DNA of 64,000 nucleotides, taken from assembly GCF_030013205.1 (NCBI RefSeq), contig NZ_CP122648.1; one strand, 5' to 3'. Within the stretch, counting starts at the first letter, position 1, and each line of letters opens with the position of its first letter. Of the stretch, positions 1 through 49,629 are shown in pieces. The position numbers were made by a program, and so were the translations under genes. Under the pieces are notes generated by a model. It saw only the letters and a list, made by a program, of their open reading frames with translations, was not told the origin of the DNA and made no database searches. The stretch comes from Escherichia coli. GTDB lineage: Bacteria; Pseudomonadota; Gammaproteobacteria; Enterobacterales; Enterobacteriaceae.

Positions 1-860
1 ATACCGAACATCAGGATTGCGACCACAATCGTACCGATGATGATCCCCCGATGTACGGCTTTGCTGTCTTTATAAGAGATACAGCGCACCGCAGTATGCG
101 GCAGGCCAATCACGCCAAAACACACCAGCACCCAGAACGACGTCATAAACGCAGGCGACAGAATATCGTCAGCGCCTTGTGGCGTAACCAGTTGCGGATC
201 GATGGTTTGCAGCGTCTCTACCGCATTGCTTAAGCCGCCAGCAGCATGGACCACGCCAATAAGCAGCACAATGGTGCCAATCAGCATCACCAGCCCTTGC
301 ATGGTGTCGTTCAGCACGCTGGCGCGAAAGCCACCAAAGGCGGTGTAGAGCGCAATGCTGATGCCAAAAATCAGCAAACCTGTTTCATAAGGAATACCCG
401 CCGCAGTTTCCAGCAGGCGCGCACCGCCGATAAACTGCACGGTCATCGCACCAACGAACGCAACCAGCAAACTCAAACTCGCCAGCCACACCAGCAGACG
501 ACTCTGGTAGCGGGCAAATAGCATATCGTTCAGCGTCACCGCATTGTAGCGGCGCGCAAGAATCGCGAACTTCTTGCCGAGAATACCGAGCGAAAGCCAG
601 ACCGCAGGAAGCTGAATCATCGCCAGCAATACCCAACCCAGGCCGTATTTATAAGCAGCGCCAGGCCCGCCGATAAACGAACTGGCACTGATATAGGTCG
701 CGGTGAGCGTCATCGCTAGCACAATACCGCCCATAGAGCGGCTACCGAGGAAATACTCATTAAGGAAGGTGCCGGTGCTCCGTTTACGCATCGCATAAAC
801 AGAGATACCGAACACCACCACCAGATAGGCGACCAGCGGTAGAATCACTTCAAGCTGCAT
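1..860 (-). CDS. panF: sodium/pantothenate symporter PanF, N-terminal part (gene continues past window start)
   Basis: Minus-strand reading frame runs off the window edge; translation from the ATG at 860 reads MQLEVILPLVAYLVVVFGISVYAMRKRSTG..., recognised as PanF. The start overlaps the yhdT stop by 11 nt, as recalled for K-12. Confidence 0.9.
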   Translation of the reverse strand, partial: MQLEVILPLVAYLVVVFGISVYAMRKRSTGTFLNEYFLGSRSMGGIVLAMTLTATYISASSFIGGPGAAYKYGLGWVLLAMIQLPAVWLSLGILGKKFAILARRYNAVTLNDMLFARYQSRLLVWLASLSLLVAFVGAMTVQFIGGARLLETAAGIPYETGLLIFGISIALYTAFGGFRASVLNDTMQGLVMLIGTIVLLIGVVHAAGGLSNAVETLQTIDPQLVTPQGADDILSPAFMTSFWVLVCFGVIGLPHTAVRCISYKDSKAVHRGIIIGTIVVAILMFG

Positions 861-1092: not shown

Positions 1093-1184
1093 GGAAGGGG
1101 TCCTCCTCATGGGGGGATACGAGAAACGGGCAATTCTACGGCAACTCTTCAGGCAGGGAAAATAATCTGACAGAAAATTGCCGT

Positions 1185-2141
1185 TCAGTGCTGCTGCAAA
1201 AAGTCTTCAATGTCAGCCAGTGAGGATATCCCTTCCATCGGACCTTGCCGCATTACGGCGAGCGCGCCGCTGGCATTTGCATATTGCAGTGCCTTATGTG
1301 CCGGGAAACCGGATAAGAAAAGAGTGATAAACGTTGCGCCAAAGCAGTCGCCTGCACCCGTTGGATCGATAATTTCGATATCGTGGCCTGTAACATGCTG
1401 GGCGTGTAATGTACCGTTTTTAAGCTTGTAATAGCTGGCCCCACGCTGGGCGCGTTTTATCGCCACATGTTTTACGCCGCCGTGGAGAAGATCGCTAACA
1501 ATCTGTTCTTCTGACAGATTTTTGTGACGCGCGAAGAAAGGGAGTTCGCTTTCGCTGGGGATAAAAATATCCGTATATTCAATCAAATAATCGAGAGCCT
1601 GCGCCATTTCAGGAATACTCAGCATCTCTTTGCGAATATTGGGATCGAAAGAAACGGTGCCGCCAGCCGATTTGATCGTCGTTATTGCTTTACGCATGAC
1701 ATCGATCATGCGAAATGAGAACAATGATGAGCCCACAATATGCAGATGGTTACACTGTTTTAGCAGATCCTTATCAATGTGCTCAGCAGTAAACAAACCG
1801 CAGGCGCTGTTAGGGATATTAAAGACGAAATCCCGCTGCTGGGGATTTTGATAACTCACGAATGCCGTACCTGTTACGGCATTGTTCATAACATGGATCC
1901 CATCGGTAATGACACCTTCATGACGGAGACGCTCTATAATGAGTCGGCCAAAATCATCATTACCAACACATCCGAAGAAGATGGCCCGATGGGACAGTTT
2001 TGCCACCTGAGCAGCAAAAATTGCTGGTGCACCGCTGGGAAATGGCCCGATAAACTCCCCAGGCTGAGTGAATTTTTGATGTGGGTTGCGGGACAAAAAC
2101 TCGGCCAGCAATTCGCCCATAGAGCAGATAGTTATTGTCAC
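1185..2141 (-). CDS. PfkB-family carbohydrate kinase, KdgK-like (islet kinase A)
   Basis: ORF 1185..2195; contains the PfkB signature DPTGAGDCFGATF and an N-terminal IGE..E / GPFPSGAPAIF region; paralogous to the kinase at 7676-8638. Start chosen as the GTG at 2141 preceded by AGAGGGG; the upstream ATG at 2195 would overlap the regulator gene by 44 nt. Confidence 0.8.
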   Translation of the reverse strand: MTITICSMGELLAEFLSRNPHQKFTQPGEFIGPFPSGAPAIFAAQVAKLSHRAIFFGCVGNDDFGRLIIERLRHEGVITDGIHVMNNAVTGTAFVSYQNPQQRDFVFNIPNSACGLFTAEHIDKDLLKQCNHLHIVGSSLFSFRMIDVMRKAITTIKSAGGTVSFDPNIRKEMLSIPEMAQALDYLIEYTDIFIPSESELPFFARHKNLSEEQIVSDLLHGGVKHVAIKRAQRGASYYKLKNGTLHAQHVTGHDIEIIDPTGAGDCFGATFITLFLSGFPAHKALQYANASGALAVMRQGPMEGISSLADIEDFLQQH

Positions 2142-2151
2142 AAAACCCCTC

Positions 2152-2982
2152 TCATTCCTGAAGCCTCTCGCGATTGGACCAAGTAAAGCACTCATTACTG
2201 GTATAAAGGATAACGAAATCAGCCGACTGCAATTGTTGCTGATATTGTTCGTTAATGCTGCGGCTGACGATCACATTTTCTGCCTGATGCAAATGCCCGA
2301 TAGCAGCCGTTGATGGCGCAGGATCGGCGGCAACGATAACTGTCTTATTCTGGGCATGATCGAAACAGAGCTGCCAGGCAGCGGCAAGTCTGGGAACGTT
2401 GATATTTAAAGTACCATCAGCATCCAGATGGCTGATTTCCAGAATGCTGTGTGTAATGGTGAAATGCTGAAGTGCCTGTTCGAGCGGTTTTCCGGCCAGT
2501 GCGGTGTCGGGGCGCAGCATTTCACTGCCAGCCAGTATTATTTCGCCATCAATAAACTGATTTGCCAGCAGCGCATGTTCGGGATCGTTGGTGATCAGAC
2601 GCAGTTTTTTCACTTCGCTGAGCAAGGGAATGATCTTACGACAGATTGTCCCATGTCCAAGAAATAGCGTGTCACGATCCCGAATTAACCGTGCGCAATG
2701 TCGTGCTATTTCCATTTGTTGTGCCAGAGACAATGGCGCGATCGGTTGTATCGCTTCTGGTTCAGAGGAGAGTGGTGTCGCAATAGCACCGCCAAATGAT
2801 CGCTTTAAATATCCCTGTTGCTCCAGATAACTGAGATCGCCGCGGATCGTCACGCCAGAGACACCAAGTTGCGCAGATAAGTCATCAACTTTGATTTCAC
2901 CCTGGGCGGCAACAATTTCTGCAATTTTTAATCTGCGTTTCAGTAGGTTAGACGATTTTCTCGGCACGTTAACACTCTTCAT
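2152..2982 (-). CDS. DeoR-family transcriptional regulator (HTH plus sugar-phosphate-binding domain)
   Basis: 276-aa ORF; N-terminal segment RLKIAEIVAAQGEIKVDDLSAQLGVSGVTIRGDLSYLEQQGYLKRSFGGA resembles the DeoR/GlpR/AgaR HTH; co-directional with and immediately upstream of kinase A. Confidence 0.8.
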   Translation of the reverse strand: MKSVNVPRKSSNLLKRRLKIAEIVAAQGEIKVDDLSAQLGVSGVTIRGDLSYLEQQGYLKRSFGGAIATPLSSEPEAIQPIAPLSLAQQMEIARHCARLIRDRDTLFLGHGTICRKIIPLLSEVKKLRLITNDPEHALLANQFIDGEIILAGSEMLRPDTALAGKPLEQALQHFTITHSILEISHLDADGTLNINVPRLAAAWQLCFDHAQNKTVIVAADPAPSTAAIGHLHQAENVIVSRSINEQYQQQLQSADFVILYTSNECFTWSNRERLQE

Positions 2983-4178
<1,196 letters not shown>

Positions 4179-4213
4179 GACGTTGTACCCTACAAAAACA
4201 ATGAGGATTGTTT

Positions 4214-5104
4214 ATGAAAAATATTAAATTACTTGGTTCAGCTATGTTGGTGAGCCTGGCATTGTTCTCGCCAAGTTCGTTGGCAAAAGAGTATAAAATT
4301 GGTGCGTCATTATTAACACAGCAACATCCTTTCTATATCGATCTTGCGAATGCCATGAAAGAAGAGGCAAAAAAAGACAATGTCAATTTAAGTGTCTCTA
4401 TTGCCAATCAGGATTTAAACAAACAACTTTCTGATGTTGAGGATTTTATTACTAAAAAAGTGGATGCCATTATTATCTCTCCGGTCGATTCGAAAGGCGT
4501 CCAGGCGGCGATAATTAAAGCCGATAAGGCCGGTATTCCCGTTATCACCGTCGACGTTGCTGCGGAAGGCGTTCCGGTCGTATCGCACGTTGCGACCGAT
4601 AACTATGCGGGAGGCGTTGAAGCAGGCAAGTTAATGGGCAAACTTTTGAATGGTAAAGGTACTGTAGCCATTATTTCTTATCCGGCACTACAATCGGTGG
4701 TTGCGCGCGTTGATGGTTTTAAGAAAGGGTTAAGCGAGACACCGGATATTAGAATTGTTGCTGAACAGCCTGGTATTACGCGGGCTGAAGCGTTAACGAC
4801 TGCGCAAAACATTATGCAGGCCAACGCCAACCTGAATGGTCTGTTTGGCTTTGGTGATGATGCGGCGTTGGCAGCGGTTATCGCAGCGAAATCTGCGCAT
4901 AACGACAACATCAAAATCATTGGTTTTGACGGCATGAAAGAAGCGCGTGATGCCGTTGACAGTGAAAAAACGTTTGCGGCCGTGATTCGGCAATATCCCG
5001 ATCAAATGGGTGCTAAAGCCATTGATGCCGCTGTTGATCACCTCAATGGTAAACCGGTAGAAAAAATGATCCCGGTACAACCCGGCGTTTATACAGGTAA
5101 ATAG
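4214..5104 (+). CDS. periplasmic sugar-binding protein of an ABC importer (RbsB-like)
   Basis: ORF 4208..5104 trimmed to the ATG at 4214 (GAGGA RBS at 4203-4207); N-terminal signal peptide MKNIKLLGSAMLVSLALFSPSSLA; overall resemblance to ribose-binding protein. Confidence 0.8.
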   Translation: MKNIKLLGSAMLVSLALFSPSSLAKEYKIGASLLTQQHPFYIDLANAMKEEAKKDNVNLSVSIANQDLNKQLSDVEDFITKKVDAIIISPVDSKGVQAAIIKADKAGIPVITVDVAAEGVPVVSHVATDNYAGGVEAGKLMGKLLNGKGTVAIISYPALQSVVARVDGFKKGLSETPDIRIVAEQPGITRAEALTTAQNIMQANANLNGLFGFGDDAALAAVIAAKSAHNDNIKIIGFDGMKEARDAVDSEKTFAAVIRQYPDQMGAKAIDAAVDHLNGKPVEKMIPVQPGVYTGK

Positions 5105-5164
5105 TAAACATCTTCACCTCACAACAAAACGTTATTGGCGTTTTGTTGTGACACCGAGGTCATT

Positions 5165-6664
5165 ATGACGGATGTTATTCTTGATGTTTCGCATATTGCG
5201 AAGACATTTGGTCATGTTCAGGCATTAAAAGATATTACCCTCTCTTTACGTAAAGGGCGGGTGCATACTTTATTAGGCGAGAATGGTGCCGGTAAATCGA
5301 CATTAATGAAAATACTCGCTGGTGTTTATCCGCCAACCCAGGGAACGATAATACTACGTGGTGAAACCATCACCATTAATAATCCGCAGCATTCTCGCCA
5401 GTTAGGGATTGCGATTATTTTTCAGGAACTGAGCCTGAGTAATAATATGACCGTGGCGGAAAATATTTATGCCAATAATGAACCGCGACGTTTTGGCATT
5501 ATTAACGATAAAAAAATGCTCGCAGATTGCCAGAATCTCCTCGCGGAACTGGGCATCCCACTGGATCCGCTGGAAATGGTCGGCAATATGTCGATGGCAC
5601 ATAGGCAACTGGTAGAAATTGCCAAAGCCTTAAGCTATGCAGCGGATGTCGTGATTATGGATGAACCGACATCTTCGCTAAGTGATAATGAAGCAGAGAT
5701 TCTGTTTAACATTATTGAAAAATTAAAGCAGCGAGGCTGTGCGGTTATTTATATCTCTCATCGCATGGATGAAATTATGCGGATTTCAGATGATATTTCG
5801 GTGATCCGCGACGGTGAGTATATCGCCACGCATGAAAAGAAAAACAGTGATATCCAGCATTTGATTGCCCAAATGGTTGGTCGGGAAATGAAAAATATTT
5901 GGCCAGCACGTCTTGGGGAAAAACCGGATGAAAATGTTCCTGCAAAACTGGAAGTAAAAAATCTTTCCCATCCTTCGCTTTTTAAAGAGGTCAGTTTCGC
6001 TGTGCGTCCGGGGGAGGTCCTCGGATTTTTTGGCCTGGTGGGGGCCGGGCGTTCCGATGTGATGAAGGCGCTATTTGGCCTCGTTTCGTATCAGGGGACT
6101 GTGTTGATTGATGGTAAGGAAGTCAGGATCGCTAATCCCAAACAGGCTATTGATCATGGCATTGCTTTTGTGACCGAAAACCGCAAGGAAGAAGGGTTAG
6201 TGCTGATGCACGACGTCAATATGAACACGCACCATGTGGCGTTTCAATATAACGCTTCGCGGATGGGACTCATTAATCACCGACAAGAAGAGGCGAAGAC
6301 GCTGCAATCAATTGCCAGAATGAACACTAAAGTGAGTTCTGTACATCAGGCAGTGGGAGCGCTGAGCGGCGGTAATCAACAGAAAATCGTGTTATCGAAG
6401 TGGCTGGAGAAAACTCCGCGTATTTTATTGCTCGATGAGCCAACGCGCGGAGTGGATGTCGGCGCAAAATTTGAAATCTATAACGTGATACGTCAACTGG
6501 CTGCGGCAGGGACAGCAATTATTCTGGTGTCCTCTGAACTGCCAGAAGTCATGGCACTTAGCGATCGTCTGGTGGTAATGCGTAATAAAACGATTGCCGA
6601 TATTTATTCATGTGAAAATTTAACGCAGACACAGGTAATGACCGCTGCAACAGGAGTACGTTAA
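5165..6664 (+). CDS. sugar ABC transporter ATP-binding protein with two fused ABC domains (RbsA/MglA-like)
   Basis: ORF 5135..6664 trimmed to the ATG at 5165 (GAGGT upstream). First Walker A GENGAGKST; second domain has LSGGNQQK signature and LLLDEPTRGVD Walker B. Confidence 0.85.
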   Translation: MTDVILDVSHIAKTFGHVQALKDITLSLRKGRVHTLLGENGAGKSTLMKILAGVYPPTQGTIILRGETITINNPQHSRQLGIAIIFQELSLSNNMTVAENIYANNEPRRFGIINDKKMLADCQNLLAELGIPLDPLEMVGNMSMAHRQLVEIAKALSYAADVVIMDEPTSSLSDNEAEILFNIIEKLKQRGCAVIYISHRMDEIMRISDDISVIRDGEYIATHEKKNSDIQHLIAQMVGREMKNIWPARLGEKPDENVPAKLEVKNLSHPSLFKEVSFAVRPGEVLGFFGLVGAGRSDVMKALFGLVSYQGTVLIDGKEVRIANPKQAIDHGIAFVTENRKEEGLVLMHDVNMNTHHVAFQYNASRMGLINHRQEEAKTLQSIARMNTKVSSVHQAVGALSGGNQQKIVLSKWLEKTPRILLLDEPTRGVDVGAKFEIYNVIRQLAAAGTAIILVSSELPEVMALSDRLVVMRNKTIADIYSCENLTQTQVMTAATGVR

Positions 6665-7654
6665 ATGACAGAGAAAACTCTTGCCAGTCCGAAACCTTCG
6701 GAAATTCCCATTGCAAATAATTTTAAAAAAGTCTTCAGGCAATATGGCGGTATCCTCAGTGGAATGGTGGTGTTAATCATTCTGTTCAGTTTTATTAATG
6801 ACAGTTTTTTTACCGCCAATAACATTACTAATATTATTCTTCAGGTTTCGATAATTGCAATTACCGCCTATGGAATGACTTATGTACTTTTGCTTGGCGA
6901 TATTGATTTATCGGTTGGTTCAACCATTGCATTGATTGGCACATTTGCTGCGCTTGGGGCTTCATGGGGAATTCCATTTATTTTATTGGTCCCATTATCC
7001 ATTATTGCAGCACTGGCTCTGGGGATGATAAATGGTGGCTTGACGGCTATAGCGGGGATCCCGTCGTTTATTGTCACCGTTGCTACTATGGGGATCTTCC
7101 GTGGTATCGCTTATATAGTGACCGATGGTATGCCCATCATGATTAAAGATGATGCCTTTCTGGCGCTGGGGAATGAAGAATTTCTCTATATACCTATTCC
7201 TATCTGGATATTAATCATCTTATTGCTGATTAACCACTTCATTCTTACTAAAACAACCTTTGGACGAAAAATTTATATCACTGGTGGTAATAAAGAAGCG
7301 GCAGTTTATTCAGGGATAAATGTCACCCGCTTGAAAATTAAAGTCTTTATGATTACAGCCGTGCTGGCAGGTATCAGCGGGATGATCCTCGCGTCACGCC
7401 TCTATTCCGGGCAACCGAATTCCGCGTTGAGCTACGAACTGGATGCTATTGCTGCGGCTGTACTGGGAGGCACCAGCCTGAACGGCGGCTATGGAACCGT
7501 GGTGGGGACGGTGATCGGCGCATTAACCATCGGCGTTATTAATAATGGCATGAACTTAATGAATGTTCCCTATTTTTACCAGATGGTGGTTAAAGGATTA
7601 GTCATTCTTGTAGCCGTTTATTTTGACGTAAGAAATAAAAGAAAACGCAGCTAA
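6665..7654 (+). CDS. sugar ABC transporter permease (RbsC-like, single membrane component)
   Basis: 329-aa highly hydrophobic ORF starting 1 nt after the ATPase stop; consistent with a monosaccharide ABC permease. Confidence 0.85.
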   Translation: MTEKTLASPKPSEIPIANNFKKVFRQYGGILSGMVVLIILFSFINDSFFTANNITNIILQVSIIAITAYGMTYVLLLGDIDLSVGSTIALIGTFAALGASWGIPFILLVPLSIIAALALGMINGGLTAIAGIPSFIVTVATMGIFRGIAYIVTDGMPIMIKDDAFLALGNEEFLYIPIPIWILIILLLINHFILTKTTFGRKIYITGGNKEAAVYSGINVTRLKIKVFMITAVLAGISGMILASRLYSGQPNSALSYELDAIAAAVLGGTSLNGGYGTVVGTVIGALTIGVINNGMNLMNVPYFYQMVVKGLVILVAVYFDVRNKRKRS

Positions 7655-7675
7655 TCATTTCAAGGAATTAATCAT

Positions 7676-8638
7676 ATGAGTAAGGTCTTCACAATTGGAG
7701 AAATTCTGGTTGAAATTATGGCGAGTAAAATCGGCCAGCCATTTGATCAACCAGGTATCTGGAACGGCCCTTATCCCAGTGGCGCACCCGCTATTTTTAT
7801 CGACCAGGTGACACGTCTTGGCGTTCCGTGCGGCATCATTAGCTGTGTGGGGAATGATGGCTTTGGTGATATTAATATACATCGTCTGGCTGCTGACGGT
7901 GTGGATATCAGGGGGATTTCAGTCTTACCTTTGGAAGCTACCGGGAGTGCCTTTGTTACTTATCATAACTCTGGCGATCGCGATTTTATTTTTAATATCA
8001 AGAATGCCGCTTGCGGTAAATTATCGGCGCAGCATGTTGATGAAAATATTCTGAAGGACTGTACCCATTTTCATATTATGGGTTCATCCCTGTTTTCATT
8101 CCATATGGTAGACGCAGTAAAGAAAGCGGTAACCATTGTAAAAGAGAATGGTGGCGTTATTTCTTTTGACCCTAATATTCGGAAAGAGATGCTCGATATT
8201 CCAGAAATGCGTGACGCCCTCCACTTTGTTCTTGAGTTAACAGATATCTATATGCCCAGCGAGGGAGAAGTGTTGCTCTTGTCGCCACACTCGACACCGG
8301 AGCGTGCAATCGCTGGTTTTCTTGAAGAAGGTGTTAAAGAGGTGATTGTGAAGCGCGGCAATCAAGGTGCCAGTTACTACTCCGCGAATGAGCAGTTTCA
8401 TGTTGAGAGCTATCCGGTGGAAGAAGTTGACCCGACTGGTGCGGGAGACTGTTTTGGTGGCGCGTGGATTGCCTGCCGCCAGCTAGGGTTTGACGCCCAT
8501 CGGGCATTACAATATGCCAACGCCTGCGGTGCACTGGCGGTAACCCGACGTGGCCCAATGGAGGGAACGTCTCGCCTTGCGGAAATCGAAGCGTTCATCC
8601 AGCGCCATGACATGTCCATTCGGGAAGCAGCACAATGA
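7676..8638 (+). CDS. PfkB-family carbohydrate kinase, KdgK-like (islet kinase B)
   Basis: 320-aa ORF; N-terminus MSKVFTIGEILVEIMA and GPYPSGAPAIF, C-terminal DPTGAGDCFGG signature; shares long identical stretches with kinase A (e.g. SFDPNIRKEML.IPEM, MGSSLFSF). Confidence 0.85.
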   Translation: MSKVFTIGEILVEIMASKIGQPFDQPGIWNGPYPSGAPAIFIDQVTRLGVPCGIISCVGNDGFGDINIHRLAADGVDIRGISVLPLEATGSAFVTYHNSGDRDFIFNIKNAACGKLSAQHVDENILKDCTHFHIMGSSLFSFHMVDAVKKAVTIVKENGGVISFDPNIRKEMLDIPEMRDALHFVLELTDIYMPSEGEVLLLSPHSTPERAIAGFLEEGVKEVIVKRGNQGASYYSANEQFHVESYPVEEVDPTGAGDCFGGAWIACRQLGFDAHRALQYANACGALAVTRRGPMEGTSRLAEIEAFIQRHDMSIREAAQ

Positions 8639-9681
8639 AAAACGAAATTTGGTCGTGGATTGGCGATCTCTCGCAGGTTGCCGGAATTAAACACTATGAG
8701 TTACGTAGTGGCAGAGCAAAGGGGACAGAAGCGTTTGATGTCCGTACTGGTGCGGGACTGGCATTTACGGTGGTAAAAGATCGCGCGCTGGATATTGCAT
8801 GGGCCAGCTACAAGGACACTGCGCTCTCTTTTATCACCCCCAACGGCATTGTCGCCCCCGCTTTTTTTGAGTCTCATGGCAACGGGTTTTTACGTAGCTT
8901 CTACGCGGGGTTACTGACTACCTGCGGACTTAGCTACATTGGCACGCCCTGTGAGGATGACGGAGAAACGCTGGGGTTACACGGGCGTTTGGCTGCGACT
9001 CCAGCAGAAGAGGTGGGGTATCGCACAGAACGGACCGACGACGGCATTGAATTTGTCATCAATGGCAAAGTACGGGAAACACGATTGTTCGGTGAAAATC
9101 TGACGCTGGAAAGGACCATTCGCTGCCGTTATGGCGAAAATGTGCTGCGCATTGAAGACAAGGTGACTAATCATGGTTTCACCCGCCAGCCGCTGCAAAT
9201 TCTTTATCACTTTAATTACGGCTGGCCTTTATTATCGCCACAGGCAGAAATCTTGCTGTCGGCTAAAAGCGTAACGCCACGAACCCCGCATGCGGCGGAA
9301 GGGTTAACCAGTCATCTGGAGATTTGTACCCCACAGCCCGGTTTTGACGAGCAAGTTTACTATCTCACGTTGAATAGCGACAGTCAGGGGATGAGTAAAG
9401 TTGCGCTGGTGAACGCCGAACTGGGGTGGGGAATTTACGAGAAATTCGACACCATGCAGCTACCCAACTTTATCCAGTGGAAAAATTTAGGCGCGGGTGA
9501 ATATGTTATGGGGCTGGAGGTCAGCAATAGTTTTCCTGACGGTCGTGATAAAGAACGAGCGCAGGGGCGTCTGCCCTTTATAGAGCCAGGGGAAACAAAG
9601 ACATACTGCTTTGAGCTGGGAATTGTTGATGGCGATGCTGAAATTAGCGCGTTGAAAGCGGAAATTGCAAGCTACCGTTAG
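8635..9681 (+). CDS. galactose-mutarotase-like (aldose-1-epimerase superfamily, possibly DUF4432) protein of unknown function
   Basis: 348-aa ORF whose ATG overlaps the kinase B stop (ATGA). Contains a YHFNYGWP motif; the family assignment is from pattern memory and is not verified. Confidence 0.6.
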   Translation: MKNEIWSWIGDLSQVAGIKHYELRSGRAKGTEAFDVRTGAGLAFTVVKDRALDIAWASYKDTALSFITPNGIVAPAFFESHGNGFLRSFYAGLLTTCGLSYIGTPCEDDGETLGLHGRLAATPAEEVGYRTERTDDGIEFVINGKVRETRLFGENLTLERTIRCRYGENVLRIEDKVTNHGFTRQPLQILYHFNYGWPLLSPQAEILLSAKSVTPRTPHAAEGLTSHLEICTPQPGFDEQVYYLTLNSDSQGMSKVALVNAELGWGIYEKFDTMQLPNFIQWKNLGAGEYVMGLEVSNSFPDGRDKERAQGRLPFIEPGETKTYCFELGIVDGDAEISALKAEIASYR

Positions 9682-9697
9682 CTAACGGCAATAAAAA

Positions 9698-9724
9698 CGC
9701 CGGGCAGCGTTAACAGGCCCGGCG
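9698..9724. terminator. GC-rich hairpin in the convergent gap between the islet and accC
   Basis: Inverted repeat CGCCGGGC / GCCCGGCG around a short loop, lying between the stop of the mutarotase-like gene (9681) and the stop of accC (9773). Confidence 0.5.
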
Positions 9725-9772
9725 TTGATTACGTTCTTTGCTAAGCGCGATGAAAACACCGCGCGTCACAAA

Positions 9773-11122
9773 TTATTTTTCCTGAAGACCGAGTTTTTTC
9801 TCCAGATAGTGGATATTAGTACCACCATGCTGGAAGTTCTCGTCATTCATGATGCGGATCTGCAGATCAACGTTGGTTTTGATACCGTCGATGATCAGCT
9901 CCTGCAGCGCATTCTTCATGCGGGCAATCGCCACGTCACGGTTTTCACCGTAGCAAATCAGCTTACCGATCATTGAGTCATAGTACGGCGGTACGGTGTA
10001 GCCCGCGTAGATATGAGACTCCCAACGTACGCCAAAACCGCCAGGTGCGTGGAAACGGGTGATTTTGCCCGGACTTGGCAGGAAGGTGTTCGGATCTTCG
10101 GCGTTGATACGACATTCCACCGCATGGCCGCGAACGTGAACTTCTTCTTGCTTGATCGACAGCGGTTGACCGGCAGCGATACGCAGCTGTTCTTTGATCA
10201 GGTCAACGCCGGTGATCATTTCGGTAACCGGATGTTCTACCTGAATACGGGTGTTCATTTCGATGAAATAGAACTCGCCGTTTTCGAACAGGAACTCGAA
10301 AGTACCTGCACCGCGATAGCCGATATCAACACACGCTTTAGCGCAACGTTCGCCGATGTAGCGACGCAGTTCCGGGGTAATGCCCGGTGCTGGTGCTTCT
10401 TCGACCACTTTCTGGTGGCGGCGCTGCATGGAGCAGTCACGTTCCGCCAGATAGATAGCGTTGCCCTGACCGTCAGCCAGTACCTGAATCTCGACGTGGC
10501 GAGGATTTTCCAGGTATTTCTCCATGTAAACCATATCGTTGCTGAAAGCAGCTTTCGCTTCCGCACGGGTCATGGAGATGGATTGTGCCAGTTCAGCGTC
10601 GCCACGCACTACGCGCATACCGCGACCGCCGCCGCCGCCGGAGGCTTTGATAATCACCGGATAACCAATGCGTTTAGCAATGGCGCGGTTTTTATCCATA
10701 TCGTCGCCCAGCGGGCCGTCAGAACCCGGTACGCAAGGAACGCCTGCTTTTTTCATCGCCGCGATTGCGGATACTTTGTCGCCCATCAGGCGAATGGTTT
10801 CTGCTTTCGGGCCAATGAAGATAAAGCCGGAGCGCTCAACCTGCTCGGCAAAGTTGGCGTTCTCGGAGAGGAAGCCGTAACCCGGATGGATTGCTACTGC
10901 GCCGGTGATTTCAGCGGCGCTGATGATTGCCGGGATGTTCAGATAACTTTTTACTGACGGAGCAGGGCCGATACAGACCGTTTCATCTGCCAGTAATACG
11001 TGTTTTAGATCGCGATCCGCGCTGGAGTGTACAGCGACAGTCTTGATGCCCAGTTCTTTACAGGCACGAAGAATACGCAATGCAATCTCGCCGCGGTTGG
11101 CAATAACAATTTTATCCAGCAT
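9773..11122 (-). CDS. accC: biotin carboxylase subunit of acetyl-CoA carboxylase
   Basis: ORF 9773..11161 trimmed to [33 protein letters not shown]... (449 aa), the AccC sequence. Confidence 0.95.
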
Positions 11123-11132
11123 GTTCGCCTCG

Positions 11133-11603
11133 TTACTCGATGACGACCAGCGGCTCGTCAAATTCTACCGGTTGTCCACTTTCGACCAGAATTGCTTTCA
11201 CGGTACCGGATTTGTCCGCTTCGATCTGGTTCATCATTTTCATGGCTTCAACGATGCACAGGGTATCGCCCACGTTGACTTTCTGACCCACTTCGATGAA
11301 CGCTTTCGCGTCCGGGCTTGGGGTGCGGTAGAAAGTACCAACCATCGGGGAACGTACGATGTGACCACTGATTTCCGCTGCTGCTGGCGCTTCCATTGAA
11401 GGAACGGTCGCCGGAGCGGCTGCGTTAGATTGAGCTGGCTGCTGCATCATTGGTGCAGCGTAAGCTTGTTGCATCACAGGGAAACTTGCGGCAGGAGCTG
11501 CACGGCTAATGCGTACTGACTCTTCGCCTTCAGAAATTTCCAGTTCGGAGATGCCTGATTCTTCAACCAGCTCGATCAGTTTTTTAATCTTACGAATATC
11601 CAT
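11133..11603 (-). CDS. accB: biotin carboxyl carrier protein of acetyl-CoA carboxylase
   Basis: 156-aa [25 protein letters not shown]... with the biotinylation motif [10 protein letters not shown]. Confidence 0.95.
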
Positions 11604-12580
11604 GAGTGGGTTCCGTACTCTTTGTTTAGTGTGATTGTGACAGGCGTTTCACCGCCGTCTGTAAAGCGTATGCCCCGACAGCTGTATGCATAGCGATAAA
11701 TTCCAGCAGGCCGGGACGCCGGTCTATTTTGCCCCAGAGTGTCAATGTTAGACTTGACGGACATTGTGCAGCGATCTGCTGCTATCCTCCGGCAAAAAAC
11801 AAAATATACCTTCGTTGCGCCAATGTCACCTTTTCCGCAGCGCAAAAACTGCGTCAGGGAGGACGAGGTCGCACATTATAACGATTTCGTAGCAATTGGC
11901 AGCTAAATACTGGTCTTATCAGGGAAGATAATCAACAGCTAACATGTAAATAACCTTCAACACCGTGTAATTTGCAACAAGCCGCACAATTCACGAAATT
12001 AGCGCCATCATCGACGGAACTTCTTATAACGTAAGGTGAAAAGCTGTAAAGCCAGCCCTGCGAAGATGAGGGGCTGCAATGAGATAATCTTCACAGACCA
12101 CAAATAATGTAGGGATGCCAGGATCGCGACAAGATAGACGACATTACGCAGCGGTTGCTGAGGATTACGCAATTTTCACTTCATCGTCTGGATAGATGTG
12201 AATGCTAAAGCACGCAAAATCAACCGTCTGACAATGCTCAGCATCAAATACGTTCGAGTGGTTAATTTGTAGGCAAATAAAATCAGATTATTCACCCCAT
12301 GGTACCAGAAATCAGTAACAGGTTAAGCGTAGCGTCGCCCAGGCAAAGCACCATAAACCTAACAGGCGACGGAGGCGTATCAATAATGGCTGTTTAGTGG
12401 AGTAACAGTGCGCATCAATTTATGGTCAGTCGAAATCATGACTTTCCAGTTTGGATGATGTTGTACAACTTCATGACCAAGATGTTCGACGAAAGCTGTC
12501 CGGCTAACCGCTTTTCCCGTTAACCGATTGAATAATGGTTTCAAAATGAGTTCCCTCTCTTATTAATCCTTGCTAAATGG

Positions 12581-13555
12581 TTAGTTAACCTTCACCAGCG
12601 TGCGCCCCTGGATCTGGTTATTAATGATGGCCTCGGCAAACTTCGGTGCCTCTGCCAGAGATATCTCTTGTGCCGCCTGGGTATAGAATGATTCCGGTAA
12701 ATCGGCGACCAGTCGCTGCCAGGCTTGTGCGCGGCGTGCTGGTGGCGTCATCACTGAATCCACCCCCTGTAAACGGACATTACGCAGAATAAATGGCATG
12801 ACCGTGGTTGGCAGAGTAAAACCACCCGCCAGACCACAGGCCGCCACGCAGCCGCCGTAATTCATTTGCGCCAGCACTTTCGCCAGCACTTTGTCGCCAA
12901 CGGTGTCAATTGCCCCAGCCCAGAGTTGTTTTTCCAGAGGACGGGATTCGGCAAACTCATCGCGAGAGAGAATACGGCTGGCTCCTAAACTTTTCAGATA
13001 TTCATGGGTACTTTCGCGACCAGAAACGGCAACGACCTGATAACCCAACTTATGCAGCAGCGCCACGGCGGTACTGCCGACGCCACCACTGGCACCCGTC
13101 ACGACAATCTCCCCATCCTGCGGGCGAACACCGGCATCTTCCAGCGCCATCACACACAGCATGGCGGTAAAACCGGCAGTACCGATAATCATTGCTTTAC
13201 GCGCGTCCAGCCCTTGCGGCATGGCAACCAGCCAGTCACCTTTCACTCGCGCCTGTTCCGCCAGCCCCCCCCAGTGGTTTTCACCAACGCCCCAGCCAGT
13301 GAGTAATACGTCCTGACCGGCATGAAAACGCGGATCTTCGCTGGTGCGTACAGTTCCGGCAAAATCGATCCCAGGAATCATCGGAAAATTACGGATGATT
13401 TTTCCCTTACCGGTAATCGCCAGCGCATCTTTGTAGTTCAGGCTCGACCAGTGAACATCAACCGTGACATCGCCCTCCGGCAGGCAACTTTCGTCCAGAG
13501 TCTTTACCGATGCGAGAGTTTTGCCGTCCTGCTGTTCTAAAAGTAACGCCTGCAT
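12581..13555 (-). CDS. acuI: acrylyl-CoA reductase / quinone-oxidoreductase-family protein AcuI (YhdH)
   Basis: 324-aa ORF MQALLLEQQDGKTLASVKTLDES...; MDR zinc-independent oxidoreductase fold; expected position next to csrD. Confidence 0.9.
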   Translation of the reverse strand: MQALLLEQQDGKTLASVKTLDESCLPEGDVTVDVHWSSLNYKDALAITGKGKIIRNFPMIPGIDFAGTVRTSEDPRFHAGQDVLLTGWGVGENHWGGLAEQARVKGDWLVAMPQGLDARKAMIIGTAGFTAMLCVMALEDAGVRPQDGEIVVTGASGGVGSTAVALLHKLGYQVVAVSGRESTHEYLKSLGASRILSRDEFAESRPLEKQLWAGAIDTVGDKVLAKVLAQMNYGGCVAACGLAGGFTLPTTVMPFILRNVRLQGVDSVMTPPARRAQAWQRLVADLPESFYTQAAQEISLAEAPKFAEAIINNQIQGRTLVKVN

Positions 13556-13706
13556 AAGTGGTCCTCATGTGCATGATGGATTGGAAAATAATTTCTGAAG
13601 ACTATACTCGCTAATGGAAAAGCAAAGCCGATGAAGCGCAATAAATTGCGAGATAAATCTGATTTGCTAGTATGCCCGCTTCCTCACTATCGGAGTTAAC
13701 ACAAGG

Positions 13707-15647
13707 ATGAGATTAACGACGAAATTTTCGGCCTTTGTTACGCTGCTCACCGGGTTAACAATTTTTGTGACTTTGCTGGGCTGTTCGCTAAGTTTCTACA
13801 ATGCCATTCAGTATAAGTTTAGTCATCGCGTTCAGGCGGTGGCGACGGCAATTGATACCCACCTTGTGTCGAATGACTTCAGCGCATTAAGGCCACAAAT
13901 TACCGAATTAATGATGTCGGCAGATATCGTTCGTGTAGACCTGCTGCATGGTGATAAACAGGTATATACCCTGGCCAGAAATGGAAGTTATCGTCCGGTT
14001 GGCACCAGCGATCTGTTTCGCGAACTGAGCGTTCCGTTGATAAAGCATCCGGGGATGTCGCTGCGTCTGGTTTATCAGGATCCGATGGGCAACTATTTCC
14101 ATTCGTTGATGACCACCGCGCCGCTCACGGGGGCGATTGGCTTTATCATTCTTATGCTCTTTCTGGCGGTACGCTGGTTACAACGGCAACTTGCCGGGCA
14201 AGAATTGCTGGAAACCCGGGCTACTCGTATCTTAAACGGTGAACGTGGCTCTAATGTTTTGGGAACCATCTATGAATGGCCGCCCAGAACCAGCAGTGCG
14301 CTGGATACGCTGCTTCGTGAAATTCAGAACGCACGCGAACAACACAGCCGTCTTGATACGCTGATCCGCTCTTATGCCGCCCAGGACATGAAAACCGGCC
14401 TCAATAACCGACTCTTCTTCGATAATCAGTTAGCAACGTTACTGGAAGATCAGGAGAAAGTAGGTACCCACGGGATCGTGATGATGATTCGTCTTCCGGA
14501 TTTCAATATGTTGAGCGATACCTGGGGGCACAGCCAGGTTGAAGAACAGTTCTTCACTCTGACGAATCTGCTGTCGACATTTATGATGCGCTATCCTGGC
14601 GCACTGCTGGCGCGTTACCACCGCAGTGATTTTGCTGCGCTGTTGCCGCACCGGACGTTAAAAGAGGCTGAGAGCATAGCCAGTCAGTTAATCAAAGCCG
14701 TCGATACCTTGCCGAATAATAAAATGCTCGATCGCGACGATATGATCCACATTGGTATCTGCGCCTGGCGTAGTGGTCAGGATACCGAGCAGGTAATGGA
14801 ACATGCAGAGTCTGCCACGCGTAATGCGGGATTGCAGGGCGGCAATAGCTGGGCTATTTACGATGACTCGTTGCCTGAAAAAGGACGCGGTAATGTTCGC
14901 TGGCGTACGCTTATCGAGCAAATGCTCAGTCGCGGCGGCCCGCGCCTTTATCAAAAACCGGCGGTTACTCGCGAAGGTCAGGTTCATCATCGCGAACTCA
15001 TGTGCCGCATCTTCGATGGTAATGAAGAGGTTAGCTCGGCGGAGTATATGCCGATGGTCTTGCAGTTTGGCTTATCGGAAGAGTATGACCGCCTGCAAAT
15101 CAGCCGTCTTATTCCACTATTGCGTTACTGGCCTGAGGAAAATCTGGCGATTCAGGTTACCGTTGAGTCGCTGATTCGCCCGCGTTTTCAGCGTTGGCTG
15201 CGCGATACGTTAATGCAATGTGAAAGATCGCAACGAAAACGCATAATTATTGAACTTGCAGAGGCCGATGTAGGTCAACATATCAGTCGTTTACAACCTG
15301 TTATTCGTTTAGTGAATGCTTTAGGGGTACGGGTAGCCGTCAACCAGGCTGGTTTGACGCTGGTAAGCACCAGTTGGATCAAAGAACTTAATGTTGAGTT
15401 ACTCAAGCTCCATCCGGGGCTGGTCAGAAACATTGAGAAGCGAACGGAGAACCAGCTGCTGGTTCAAAGCCTGGTGGAAGCCTGCTCCGGGACCAGCACC
15501 CAGGTTTACGCCACCGGCGTGCGTTCGCGAAGCGAGTGGCAGACCCTGATTCAGCGCGGTGTTACAGGTGGGCAAGGGGATTTTTTCGCGTCCTCACAGC
15601 CACTTGATACTAACGTGAAAAAATATTCACAAAGATACTCGGTTTAA
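13707..15647 (+). CDS. csrD: RNase E specificity factor CsrD (degenerate GGDEF/EAL protein)
   Basis: 646-aa ORF with N-terminal membrane segments followed by GGDEF-like and EAL-like domains; expected position upstream of mreB. Confidence 0.9.
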   Translation: MRLTTKFSAFVTLLTGLTIFVTLLGCSLSFYNAIQYKFSHRVQAVATAIDTHLVSNDFSALRPQITELMMSADIVRVDLLHGDKQVYTLARNGSYRPVGTSDLFRELSVPLIKHPGMSLRLVYQDPMGNYFHSLMTTAPLTGAIGFIILMLFLAVRWLQRQLAGQELLETRATRILNGERGSNVLGTIYEWPPRTSSALDTLLREIQNAREQHSRLDTLIRSYAAQDMKTGLNNRLFFDNQLATLLEDQEKVGTHGIVMMIRLPDFNMLSDTWGHSQVEEQFFTLTNLLSTFMMRYPGALLARYHRSDFAALLPHRTLKEAESIASQLIKAVDTLPNNKMLDRDDMIHIGICAWRSGQDTEQVMEHAESATRNAGLQGGNSWAIYDDSLPEKGRGNVRWRTLIEQMLSRGGPRLYQKPAVTREGQVHHRELMCRIFDGNEEVSSAEYMPMVLQFGLSEEYDRLQISRLIPLLRYWPEENLAIQVTVESLIRPRFQRWLRDTLMQCERSQRKRIIIELAEADVGQHISRLQPVIRLVNALGVRVAVNQAGLTLVSTSWIKELNVELLKLHPGLVRNIEKRTENQLLVQSLVEACSGTSTQVYATGVRSRSEWQTLIQRGVTGGQGDFFASSQPLDTNVKKYSQRYSV

Positions 15648-15825
15648 CCTGCCGTTTAATCCGTTTTCACGTAGAATAACGCGCGCTGCGTCTCATGGGA
15701 GTGTGCTTGTCTGCTCGCCAGATTGTTGCAGCACATATGCAGATGAATGACCTTACGTGGTTGCAAACAGGCGAGGAATGCTGCTGATGCATTAAGCCTT
15801 TCTGGACTCAGGCAGAGATTTGTAA

Positions 15826-16995
<1,170 letters not shown>

Positions 16996-33445: not shown

Positions 33446-34155
33446 AAAAACCGGAGCACAGACTCCGGTTTTTTGTTGTGCACAGAAAACCCCCAGCTAG
33501 GCTGGGGGTTCCGGAAAGCTTTCAGCTTTGAGCCAGTTATTAAAACCCCTTTTGATTTGTTAAAACACCTTGCGGTCTGGCAACTGCAAGTGTCAAACAA
33601 GAAATCAAAAGGGGGTCCCAATGGGGAACGAAAAGAGCTTAGCGCACACCCGATGGAACTGTAAATATCACATAGTTTTTGCGCCAAAATACCGAAGACA
33701 GGTGTTCTACAGAGAGAAGCGTAGAGCAATAGGCAGTATTTTGAGAAAGCTGTGTGAGTGGAAAAGCGTACGGATTCTGGAAGCTGAATGCTGTGCAGAT
33801 CATATCCATATGCTTGTGGAGATCCCGCCCAAAATGAGCGTATCCGGGTTTATGGGATATCTGAAAGGGAAAAGCAGTCTGATGCTTTACGAGCAGTTTG
33901 GTGATTTGAAATTCAAATACAGGAACAGGGAGTTCTGGTGCAGAGGGTACTACGTCGATACAGTGGGTAAGAACACGGCGAAGATACAGGATTACATAAA
34001 GCACCAGCTTGAAGAGGATAAAATGGGAGAGCAGTTATCGATTCCCTATCCGGGCAGCCCGTTTACGGGCCGTAAGTAACGAAGTTGGATGCAAATGTCA
34101 GATCGTGTGCGCCTGTTAGGGCGCGGCTGGTAAGAGAGCCTTATAGGCGCATTTG
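33446..34155 (+). mobile_element. IS200-family insertion sequence (IS200/IS605 family, about 0.71 kb)
   Basis: Encodes a 152-aa Y1 (HuH) transposase closely matching Salmonella IS200 TnpA as I recall it. Left-end hairpin with T-run (33451-33474) and internal hairpin CCCCCAGC-tag-GCTGGGGG (33490-33508). The convergent mdh-degS gap is recalled as about 60 bp in K-12 and is 774 bp here. Boundaries are inferred, give or take about 15 bp. Confidence 0.75.
33621..34079 (+). CDS. tnpA: IS200 transposase TnpA (Y1 HuH transposase)
   Basis: ORF 33570..34079 trimmed to MGNEKSLAHTRWNCKYHIVFAPKYRRQVFY...; HuH motif (HIHMLVEIPP) and catalytic-Tyr region present. Confidence 0.85.
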   Translation: MGNEKSLAHTRWNCKYHIVFAPKYRRQVFYREKRRAIGSILRKLCEWKSVRILEAECCADHIHMLVEIPPKMSVSGFMGYLKGKSSLMLYEQFGDLKFKYRNREFWCRGYYVDTVGKNTAKIQDYIKHQLEEDKMGEQLSIPYPGSPFTGRK

Positions 34156-48516: not shown

Positions 48517-49629
48517 TTAACGGCGTCTATAGCCTTCCTCTAGCACCGCCTGTGTTCGAACGAGTTCATCCGCGAGTCGTTTTTCATCAGGTAGTTGCAT
48601 CTTATATTCGCTCGCCAGAACGGTGTTAGGCAAACCAGCCAGTGCATAATACGCTTCGCCGGCTCCTTTCTCTGCACAGAGAACCAGACCGATGGGCGGA
48701 TTTTCATCCGGTAGTGTCCAGTGCTCTTTGGCGTAGTTGAGATACATATTCATCTGTCCGGCATCGCTATAGCTGAATTTGCCCACTTTTAGATCGACGA
48801 TTAGCAGGCAGCGTAAACGGCGGTGGAAAAACAGCAGATCGACACGAAACCAGTTGTCATCAATGCGTAACCTTCGCTGTCGACCAACAAAGGCAAAATC
48901 ATCCCCAAGTTCCAGCATGAAATCCATCAGGTGGTTGATCAGCGCCTCCTCAAAATCGGATTCTGAGTATTCATCTTTCAATTCCAGAAATTCGAGCACA
49001 AAGGGATCGCGTATCGCCTGCTGCGGAAGAATATGCGTCTCGGTAGGAGCGTGTTGTTGCAGCATGGCTGATTTGTCATGTGACAGTAGTGTCCGCTCAT
49101 AAAACTGGGTCGCAATTTGTCGTTCGAGCTGACGAGCAGACCAGCCACAGCGGAGTGTCTCTTTCTCATAAAAGCTGCGAGCATCAGCTTTTTTAACAGA
49201 AAGCAAACGGACGTAAGTGGACCAGGGCAGGGGGAAGGATTTGGCGAGTTGCGCTAAATGGCAAGATTCTCCAGACACAGTCTGGAGAATTGTGGGGGTG
49301 AATTGTGCAGACAGTGTCTGCACAATTTCAATTCTTTGAAAACAAATATAAAAATTCTTAAACTGCCATAAATTCCTGGTGGAAAATCCACGCTTATACC
49401 TTAGACTTAAATCCTTTGATAGTCGCTTGATTAGCTGCGCACCATACGCAGCCCTGGCCTCGCCACCTTGTTCAAATTCGACAATTCGTCGGCCAATTTC
49501 CCAGTACGTCGCGGTCATTAACGCGTTAACGCTACGTACCGTTTCCGTTCGGGCGCTATCGACCAGATGAATAATGCCGTCGTGGATTTGCTGGTAGCCT
49601 GCTGTGGTTCCTTCTGAGAGCGATTCCAT
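48517..49629 (-). CDS. yhcG: DUF1016 (YhcG-family, predicted PD-(D/E)xK nuclease-fold) protein
   Basis: 370-aa ORF MESLSEGTTAGYQQIHDGIIHLVDSARTETVRSVNALMTATYWEIGRRIVEFEQ...; size and position correspond to YhcG. Confidence 0.85.
   Translation of the reverse strand: MESLSEGTTAGYQQIHDGIIHLVDSARTETVRSVNALMTATYWEIGRRIVEFEQGGEARAAYGAQLIKRLSKDLSLRYKRGFSTRNLWQFKNFYICFQRIEIVQTLSAQFTPTILQTVSGESCHLAQLAKSFPLPWSTYVRLLSVKKADARSFYEKETLRCGWSARQLERQIATQFYERTLLSHDKSAMLQQHAPTETHILPQQAIRDPFVLEFLELKDEYSESDFEEALINHLMDFMLELGDDFAFVGRQRRLRIDDNWFRVDLLFFHRRLRCLLIVDLKVGKFSYSDAGQMNMYLNYAKEHWTLPDENPPIGLVLCAEKGAGEAYYALAGLPNTVLASEYKMQLPDEKRLADELVRTQAVLEEGYRRR
49266..49327. repeat. two further palindromes of the same family inside the 5' third of yhcG
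   Basis: ATTCTCCAGAC-aca-GTCTGGAGAAT (49266-49290) and AATTGTGCAGACA-g-TGTCTGCACAATT (49301-49327); both share the CAGACA..TGTCTG core with 48477-48501. Confidence 0.8.

Follow-up and report, generated by a model that had tools for sequence, protein, structure and literature searches.

[quoted passage not shown] Deletion of the cluster, or in-frame deletion of its kinase gene, abolished growth on and consumption of D-tagatose, and six cloned genes allowed K-12, B and W strains to grow on this sugar, the six-gene cluster being both necessary and sufficient (PMC9720028). PfkA was also required, and expression of tagY, tagA and tagB increased more than 1000-fold on tagatose (PMC9720028). TagR has been shown to act as a repressor (PMC12226905). 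In K-12 the site between yhdT and accC that is occupied by the cluster is empty (PMC9720028), and the cluster has been described as a lineage marker; among E. coli of phylogroup B2, 93% of the genomes carry it. The 2022 authors stated as a limitation that individual cluster genes other than the kinase gene were not deleted (PMC9720028). In both papers we found no ligand-binding data for TagA, no uptake assay and no deletion of tagA, tagB or tagC, singly or as tagABC only.

Here, we analyzed a stretch of 64,000 nucleotides of E. coli DNA (RefSeq assembly GCF_030013205.1, contig NZ_CP122648.1; hereafter the window), in which a preliminary description had noted a sugar importer at 4214-7654. This segment consists of three intact open reading frames on the plus strand, which RefSeq likewise annotates as genes in an E. 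coli genome of 100% identity. They are part of an island (1093-9772) bordered by yhdT (850-1092) on one side and accC (9773-11122) on the other, as is the cluster in Nissle 1917. The window and the Nissle 1917 genome (NZ_CP058217) have the same order of eight genes, with tagK-tagR divergent from tagYABCDE (Table 1). DNA identity between island and Nissle cluster was 98.0% over 8.67 kb, and the eight proteins were 97.1-99.4% identical to their Nissle orthologues in full-length alignments. Judged by this sequence agreement, the genes at 4214-7654 are tagA, tagB and tagC of the E. coli D-tagatose cluster, tagYABCDE plus the divergent tagR-tagK. The cluster, and hence the identity of tagABC, is already published for Nissle 1917 and is not new.

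Table 1. Genes and predicted regulatory sites of the tag island, in window positions.
Feature	Positions	Strand	Assignment	Basis or remark
tagK	1185-2120	-	Second PfkB sugar kinase, co-transcribed with tagR	99.4% identical to Nissle orthologue
tagR	2152-2982	-	DeoR-family repressor, tagatose-responsive	99.3% identical to Nissle TagR
CRP site	3210-3225	+	Predicted CRP site TTCGA-N6-TCACG, upstream of Ptag	Exact match to published site
Ptag	3227-3253	+	Promoter	-35 TTTTTT (Nissle TTTTTG; G>T at 3232); -10 TAGTTT at 3248-3253
tagO1	3255-3273	+	Predicted TagR operator	One mismatch to published 19-mer; 0.04 chance matches expected
tagO2	3279-3297	-	Predicted TagR operator	Exact match to published 19-mer; 0 chance matches expected
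tagY	3324-4178	+	Class II D-tagatose-1,6-bisphosphate aldolase, first operon gene	TIGR01858; 99.3% identical to Nissle TagY
tagA	4214-5104	+	Predicted periplasmic D-tagatose-binding protein, 296 aa	Peripla_BP_4; 98.6% identical to Nissle TagA
tagB	5165-6664	+	Fused double-domain ABC ATPase, 499 aa	Two ABC_tran domains; 99.2% identical to Nissle TagB
tagC	6665-7654	+	Sole permease gene, 329 aa	BPD_transp_2; 99.1% identical to Nissle TagC
tagD	7676-8638	+	D-tagatose kinase, PfkB family, makes tagatose 6-phosphate	NF049991; 99.1% identical to Nissle gene
tagE	8635-9681	+	DUF4432 protein, annotated 'aldose 1-epimerase family'	97.1% identical to Nissle TagE

None of the three transporter genes is disrupted, each aligning over its full length with the Nissle 1917 orthologue. 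Compared with the Nissle allele, four substitutions were present in TagA, four in TagB and three in TagC, all of them outside the ATPase motifs and the pocket positions. The genes are closely packed, with 60 nt between tagA and tagB and no gap between tagB and tagC. For tagA, we kept the start codon of the preliminary description (ATG 4214); the frame is open from TTG 4208, two codons further upstream. The tagB frame likewise reaches upstream of its RefSeq start (ATG 5165) to a TTG at 5135. This region of the window is 100% identical to genomes of porcine ETEC O139:H1, and the island is carried by 1419 of 5426 complete E. coli genomes, about a quarter.

The divergent intergenic region (2983-3323) has a length of 341 bp, the same size as in Nissle, and differs from the Nissle sequence at 16 positions, one of them in the -35 hexamer of Ptag and one in tagO1. 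Both -10 hexamers (Ptag and Preg) and the -35 hexamer of Preg match the published sequences exactly. The transcription start of Ptag was placed at about 3260 from its published position 64 nt upstream of tagY. Scanning the operon for consensus promoters and terminators yielded sites no more numerous than in shuffled sequence. Growth on D-tagatose and induction by tagatose were demonstrated with the Nissle allele only.

Regarding the genes that accompany the transporter, TagY scored 477.6 bits with NCBIfam TIGR01858 (cut-off 443.55). The product of tagD, the gene that directly follows tagC and is the orthologue (7676-8638) of the kinase gene deleted in Nissle, gave 413.9 bits with the 'tagatose kinase' model NF049991, just below the cut-off of 420; TagK reached 343 bits with the tagatose-kinase model, also below the cut-off. 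TagE carries a Pfam DUF4432 domain (E 3e-104) and had no match in an NCBIfam search. The top NCBIfam match of TagR was AgaR, with 105.6 bits below the cut-off of 260. According to NCBIfam and the gene calls, neither a polyol dehydrogenase nor a PTS component is encoded on the island, and neither ribokinase nor RbsD in the operon. The order binding protein, ATPase, permease and PfkB kinase is kept in four distant loci, from Verminephrobacter, Serratia, an alphaproteobacterial MAG and a low-GC metagenome contig, the kinases of which scored 447, 430, 314 and 405 bits, respectively, with the tagatose-kinase model (cut-off 420).

In terms of transporter class, the segment at 4214-7654 has the layout of a CUT2 ('ribose-type', TC 3.A.1.2) system by Pfam and NCBIfam: a periplasmic binding protein of the Peripla_BP_4 type with a signal peptide, a fused two-domain ABC ATPase of about 500 aa, and one BPD_transp_2 permease. 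The preliminary description had proposed an RbsBAC-type importer in the order binding protein, ATPase and single permease (B-A-C). The order is borne out by three intact co-oriented reading frames with the corresponding Pfam domains, and the RbsBAC type by the assignment of all three proteins to CUT2, to which the Rbs, Als, Ara, Xyl and Mgl systems belong. In TagB, the two ABC_tran domains were recognized with E values of 4e-31 and 6e-20, and the protein aligned end to end with XylG, AraG, RbsA and AlsA at 490-556 bits, in each case under the equivalog cut-off. Its Walker A motifs are GENGAGKS (38) and GLVGAGRS (290), Walker B motifs lie at 162 and 420, and the signature motifs are MSMAH (142), which is degenerate, and LSGGN (400). 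TagC contains a complete BPD_transp_2 domain (PF02653; residues 53-317, E 1.6e-41) and resembles AraH, RbsC and AlsC from end to end. Neither the list of reading frames nor the gene calls contain a second permease within the operon. TagC probably forms a homodimer in the membrane.

TagA contains a complete Peripla_BP_4 domain (PF13407; residues 30-280, E 1.8e-53), and its N-terminus, MKNIKLLGSAMLVSLALFSPSSLA followed by KEYK, resembles by eye a Sec signal peptide of about residues 1-24 (4214-4285). The top NCBIfam match was RbsB (NF007936), yet the score of 160.2 bits was far from the cut-off of 337; the AlsB model gave 106 bits (cut-off 335). Identity with E. coli RbsB was 31%. The best PDB match was the ribose binder 2IOY (E 7.5e-48, 166.5 bits). 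PDB entry 5DKV, which we take to be an Agrobacterium vitis binding protein crystallized with tagatopyranose, is with 63 bits a distant relative only. The ribose pocket of E. coli RbsB is made up of N13, F15, F16, D89, R90, R141, F164, N190, D215 and Q235 (PMC2630998). Five of these ten residues are kept in TagA (F15, D89, R141, D215 and Q235), and the others are exchanged (N13>H, F16>Y, R90>V, F164>I and N190>G), including R90 and N190, which contact ribose. The altered pocket is near-invariant among 113 homologues, down to 64% identity. NCBIfam relatives include autoinducer-2 binders, rhizopine binders and TorT, the partner of a TMAO sensor, and because of such relatives the rule that CUT2 means monosaccharide is looser than had been stated.

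Given that the published pathway requires both the kinase and PfkA, the sugar enters the cell unphosphorylated and is phosphorylated inside. Import of an unphosphorylated ketohexose by an ABC transporter fits the published TagD/PfkA/TagY pathway better than PTS delivery, and the latter was rejected because PTS components are missing from the island and the pathway depends on a cytoplasmic kinase. The preliminary description had likewise argued against a PTS-delivered phospho-sugar, and its expectation of a hexose or pentose agrees with D-tagatose, a ketohexose, at a locus 98% identical to the published cluster. Its claim that a free monosaccharide is handled agrees with the kinase genetics (PMC9720028) and the identity of the cluster.

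We consider it very probable that TagABC is an ATP-driven importer of free D-tagatose, encoded in the E. coli tag cluster, an accessory island flanked by yhdT and accC. The part ascribed to TagABC itself draws on whole-cluster genetics and homology, which suggest that TagA would bind D-tagatose directly and that the transporter would be the only or main uptake route for this sugar. In the proposed mechanism, secreted TagA would capture D-tagatose in the periplasm and dock on a dimer of the TagC permease. TagB, a single chain with two nucleotide-binding domains, would drive translocation by ATP hydrolysis, with one canonical and one degenerate ATP site. In the cytoplasm, TagD would convert tagatose to tagatose 6-phosphate, housekeeping PfkA would form tagatose 1,6-bisphosphate, and TagY would cleave the latter into DHAP and glyceraldehyde 3-phosphate. 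Ptag would be repressed by TagR and relieved by tagatose, and the operon would be subject to catabolite repression.

The strongest competing explanation is that TagABC has a broader or another specificity and serves a different rare ketohexose, a hexitol (candidates being galactitol, D-altritol, L-sorbose and D-psicose) or a tagatose-containing gut metabolite, with D-tagatose as one of several substrates. In its favor, rhizobial clusters of ABC transporter and tagatose kinase serve the catabolism of galactitol and tagatose in Sinorhizobium meliloti, and a study on D-altritol and galactitol in Agrobacterium tumefaciens is cited, both according to PMC9720028; moreover, tagE and the second kinase gene tagK are without an assigned role, and neither of the two papers on the Nissle cluster reports ligand binding by TagA. 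However, a polyol dehydrogenase is absent from the E. coli island, D-tagatose itself induces more than 1000-fold and is the sugar to which TagR responds, and the transporter-linked kinase is consistently of the tagatose-kinase type at distant loci. We therefore regard a broader importer as unlikely, though still the foremost of the alternatives. A related proposal, to which we give slightly less credence, is that tagatose is a surrogate substrate: the TagA pocket (H38, Y41, S89, V115, I188, F213 and G214) may have evolved for other or broader gut-derived sugars, and tagE and tagK may constitute a second catabolic branch served by the same importer.

Alternatively, D-tagatose could enter mainly via a housekeeping transporter, TagABC being dispensable or a high-affinity scavenger and kinase and aldolase alone essential. 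In PMC9720028, deletions and growth tests were confined to the kinase and to the six-gene cluster as a whole, leaving the minimal gene set undefined, which would accommodate such a route. Against it, two of the three genes that tagatose induces more than 1000-fold are tagA and tagB, and transporter and kinase are kept as a unit in distant bacteria. Hence we think this route improbable. As to a second D-ribose or D-allose transporter, ribose binders head the TagA matches and several database entries give near relatives the name 'RbsB' or 'ribose transport system substrate-binding protein', but the scores below the RbsB and AlsB cut-offs, a pocket that has lost five of ten residues including R90 and N190, operon partners (tagatose kinase and tagatose-bisphosphate aldolase) that do not fit, and the growth on tagatose conferred by the cluster (PMC9720028) leave this reading next to no probability, and on the sequence evidence ribose is not the ligand of TagA.

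The tag cluster gives probiotic as well as pathogenic E. coli the ability to grow on D-tagatose, a food sweetener. Since free D-tagatose is rare in nature, there may be other physiological ligands as well. To the published picture the window adds little beyond an intact, about 2% divergent allele in a genome that is regionally 100% identical to porcine ETEC. What the present analysis contributes is the non-ribose pocket of TagA, its near-invariance in homologues, and the conserved module of transporter and tagatose kinase. Of practical interest would be direct biochemical evidence for binding of D-tagatose by TagA and for uptake through TagABC. A ligand screen with TagA, for which the preliminary description had recommended the binding protein, would most likely return the answer already in the literature.

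Among known systems, TagABC of Nissle 1917 (HW372_RS02450-RS02460, also ECOLIN_RS18690-RS18680) is the same as that of the window in chromosomal site, gene order and the 341-bp regulatory region with its CRP site and tagO1/tagO2; the two alleles differ by about 2% in DNA, with 16 intergenic substitutions, of which one changes the Ptag -35 hexamer and another changes tagO1. With RbsABC and AlsBAC of E. coli, which are CUT2 transporters, TagABC has the three-part architecture in common (Peripla_BP_4, two-domain ATPase of about 500 aa, BPD_transp_2). The B-A-C gene order of tagABC is also that of the alsBAC operon. Unlike in these systems, TagA falls below both equivalog cut-offs and has a remodelled pocket (N13>H, R90>V, F164>I, N190>G), and the neighbouring genes encode a tagatose kinase and an aldolase instead of ribokinase or allose enzymes.

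In TagABCDE on S. meliloti pSymB (Kohlmeier et al., 2019) and in the D-altritol/galactitol system of A. tumefaciens C58 (Wichelecki et al., 2015), an ABC importer is followed by a tagatose kinase, as in E. coli tag, and free sugar is converted to tagatose 6-phosphate in the rhizobial systems and E. coli alike, according to PMC9720028, in which homologues were called at an identity of at least 30%. In the rhizobial route, as given in the same paper, a 4-epimerase then turns tagatose 6-phosphate into fructose 6-phosphate. The E. coli island, in contrast, relies on the aldolase gene tagY together with PfkA; it has a DUF4432 protein at the position of the epimerase and no tagatose-6-phosphate 4-epimerase in the cluster. 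The PTS-dependent tagatose pathways of Klebsiella oxytoca, Salmonella and Gram-positive bacteria proceed through tagatose 1,6-bisphosphate to the same end products as E. coli tag, likewise with a class II aldolase (PMC9720028). They differ at the entry step, since the PTS pathways import a phospho-sugar, whereas in E. coli tag an ABC importer would deliver the sugar in free form, and its phosphorylation requires a separate kinase (PMC9720028).

The three successive open reading frames at 4214-7654, all on the plus strand, are tagABC, part of a system already known and named, because DNA, proteins and regulatory sites match the locus of E. coli Nissle 1917. RefSeq calls the same genes in an E. 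coli genome showing 100% identity to 3000-10000. The open frame of tagB extends back as far as TTG 5135. The preliminary description had seen a B-A-C arrangement of binding protein, tandem ATPase and a single permease, which proved exactly right, as the reading frames, their domains and end-to-end alignments of all three products with components of ribose, arabinose, xylose and allose transporters (NCBIfam) concur; neither TagA, TagB nor TagC reached an NCBIfam equivalog cut-off. The TagA N-terminus, MKNIKLLGSAMLVSLALFSPSSLA followed by KEYK, resembles a Sec signal peptide when read by eye. In TagB, a canonical Walker A (GENGAGKS) pairs with the second signature (LSGGN), also canonical, and the first signature (MSMAH), which is degenerate, pairs with a variant Walker A (GLVGAGRS), implying that one ATP site would be consensus and the other degenerate. 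Transporters of this family usually show such an asymmetry.

Positions of the tag genes, neighbouring features and related genes elsewhere
Feature	Position	Strand	Description
partial panF	1-860		
tagK	1185-2120	minus	PfkB sugar kinase
tagR		minus	DeoR regulator
tagR-tagY region	2983-3323		intergenic, 341 bp
tagY		plus	class II tagatose-bisphosphate aldolase
tagA	4214-5104	plus	296 aa; full-length Peripla_BP_4 domain
tagB	5165-6664	plus	499 aa from ATG (RefSeq start); two ABC_tran domains
tagC	6665-7654	plus	329 aa; single full-length BPD_transp_2 domain
tagD	7676-8638	plus	second PfkB kinase
tagE	8635-9681	plus	DUF4432 protein; last gene of operon
accB to yhdH	11604-12580		~980 bp; no annotated gene in identical genome; truncated YedZ-like pseudogene in Nissle 1917 record
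transposase gene	33621-34079		IS200C family, inserted between mdh and degS (RefSeq annotation of identical genome)
nuclease-domain gene	48517-49628		PDDEXK; downstream of nan operon; annotated pseudogene, frameshifted, internal stop
Serratia cluster	2174-16148 (CAMKRK010000004.1)		homologous cluster
Serratia tagK homologue	4875-5834 (same contig)		adjoins regulator
Serratia GatZ-type gene	12682-14007 (same contig)		aldolase partner, at tagE position
GatZ/KbaZ-like gene	5769-7043 (alphaproteobacterial MAG, L006)		adjoins module
tagK homologue	12461-13435 (low-GC metagenome contig, L007)		adjoins regulator

The island in Nissle 1917 was described as a D-tagatose utilisation cluster by Ha et al. 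(2022; PMC9720028). Deletion of the six-gene operon, or of the kinase alone, abolished growth on and consumption of D-tagatose; according to the authors, single-gene deletion in the cluster was confined to the kinase. The whole operon was necessary and sufficient for growth, and K-12, B and W strains gained the trait from the cloned operon. Tagatose induced the aldolase, binding-protein and ATPase genes more than 1000-fold (PMC9720028). The names tagK, tagR, tagY, tagA, tagB, tagC, tagD and tagE are those of Park et al. (2025; PMC12226905), who mapped both transcription start sites, predicted two operators as well as a CRP site, and demonstrated that TagR is a tagatose-responsive repressor.

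On this near-identical allele, free D-tagatose is phosphorylated in the cytoplasm by TagD and then by PfkA, itself needed for growth, and cleavage by tagatose-bisphosphate aldolase follows (PMC9720028). The required cytoplasmic step by TagD supports the earlier view of a monosaccharide ABC importer bringing in a free hexose and not a PTS phospho-sugar. In uptake, TagA would bind periplasmic D-tagatose, a TagC homodimer would form the channel and TagB would hydrolyse ATP.

Among solved structures, ribose-binding proteins come nearest to TagA (2IOY, E = 7.5e-48; E. coli RbsB, ~1e-34), yet TagA shares only 31% identity with RbsB. Five of the ten ribose-pocket residues of E. coli RbsB (PMC2630998) are retained (F15, D89, R141, D215 and Q235, as TagA F40, D114, R165, D239 and Q260) and five differ (N13 to H38, F16 to Y41, R90 to V115, F164 to I188 and N190 to G214). 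Three of the changes replace a large side chain with a smaller one, a pattern that might accommodate a bulkier ligand than a pentopyranose. A database search with TagA found 1657 relatives at E ≤ 1e-30; in 113 full-length homologues, with identities down to 64%, the altered residues vary little or not at all, with V or I at position 115 and almost always I at position 188. A ribose or allose role for TagABC is effectively excluded.

Binding protein, ATPase, permease and PfkB kinase adjoin in all four distant loci compared. Against the tagatose-kinase model of NCBIfam (cut-off 420), the kinase scored 447 bits in Verminephrobacter (64% identity), 430 in Serratia (86%), 314 in an alphaproteobacterial MAG (65%) and 405 in a low-GC metagenome contig (71%). 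Module adjacency and these scores lend independent comparative support to the view that the TagA-type lineage feeds a tagatose kinase. D-tagatose is the expected ligand of mature TagA. That the natural ligand is broader than, or different from, D-tagatose seems unlikely, and that the transporter is dispensable for D-tagatose use is likewise improbable; both retain some weight because the deletions are confined to operon and kinase and we found neither an uptake assay nor TagA binding data in the published work searched.

TagK, co-transcribed with the DeoR regulator, scored 343 bits on the same model, under the cut-off, and cannot replace TagD, as the published kinase deletion shows by abolishing growth on D-tagatose (PMC9720028). 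The Serratia GatZ-type protein scored 767.7 bits against a cut-off of 579. Since the DUF4432 protein holds its position in E. coli, the TagY aldolase of the island is without a GatZ-type subunit of its own.

The transporter genes lie in an eight-gene, 8.7-kb accessory island of the E. coli chromosome, with yhdT on one side and accC on the other and a G+C content of 46.3% versus 52.0% in the remainder of the window. At least 80% of 3000-10000 is present in 1419 of 5426 complete E. coli genomes (~26%). The insertion site is common to different families of Enterobacterales, because the Serratia cluster occupies the same junction (prmA, panF, yhdT, cluster, accC, accB). An early acquisition followed by repeated losses, or spread by recombination via the conserved flanks, would account for this.

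Compared with the Nissle 1917 locus, the cluster is 98.0% identical in DNA over 8.67 kb, and all eight proteins align over their full length with 97.1-99.4% identity (TagA 98.6%, TagB 99.2%, TagC 99.1%). The partial panF (95.5%) and tagD (96.9%) are less alike than their neighbours (98.2-99.2%), and this patchy divergence hints at local recombination. The published tagO2 19-mer, CRP site and -10 hexamers occur exactly, and tagO1, the other predicted TagR operator, has one mismatch. The tagR-tagY region is 95.3% identical to that of Nissle 1917, with 16 of 341 positions differing, including G>T at 3232 in the -35 hexamer of Ptag, the promoter upstream of tagY, and A>G at 3271 in tagO1, and the flanking tag genes are mostly ~98.2-98.5% identical.
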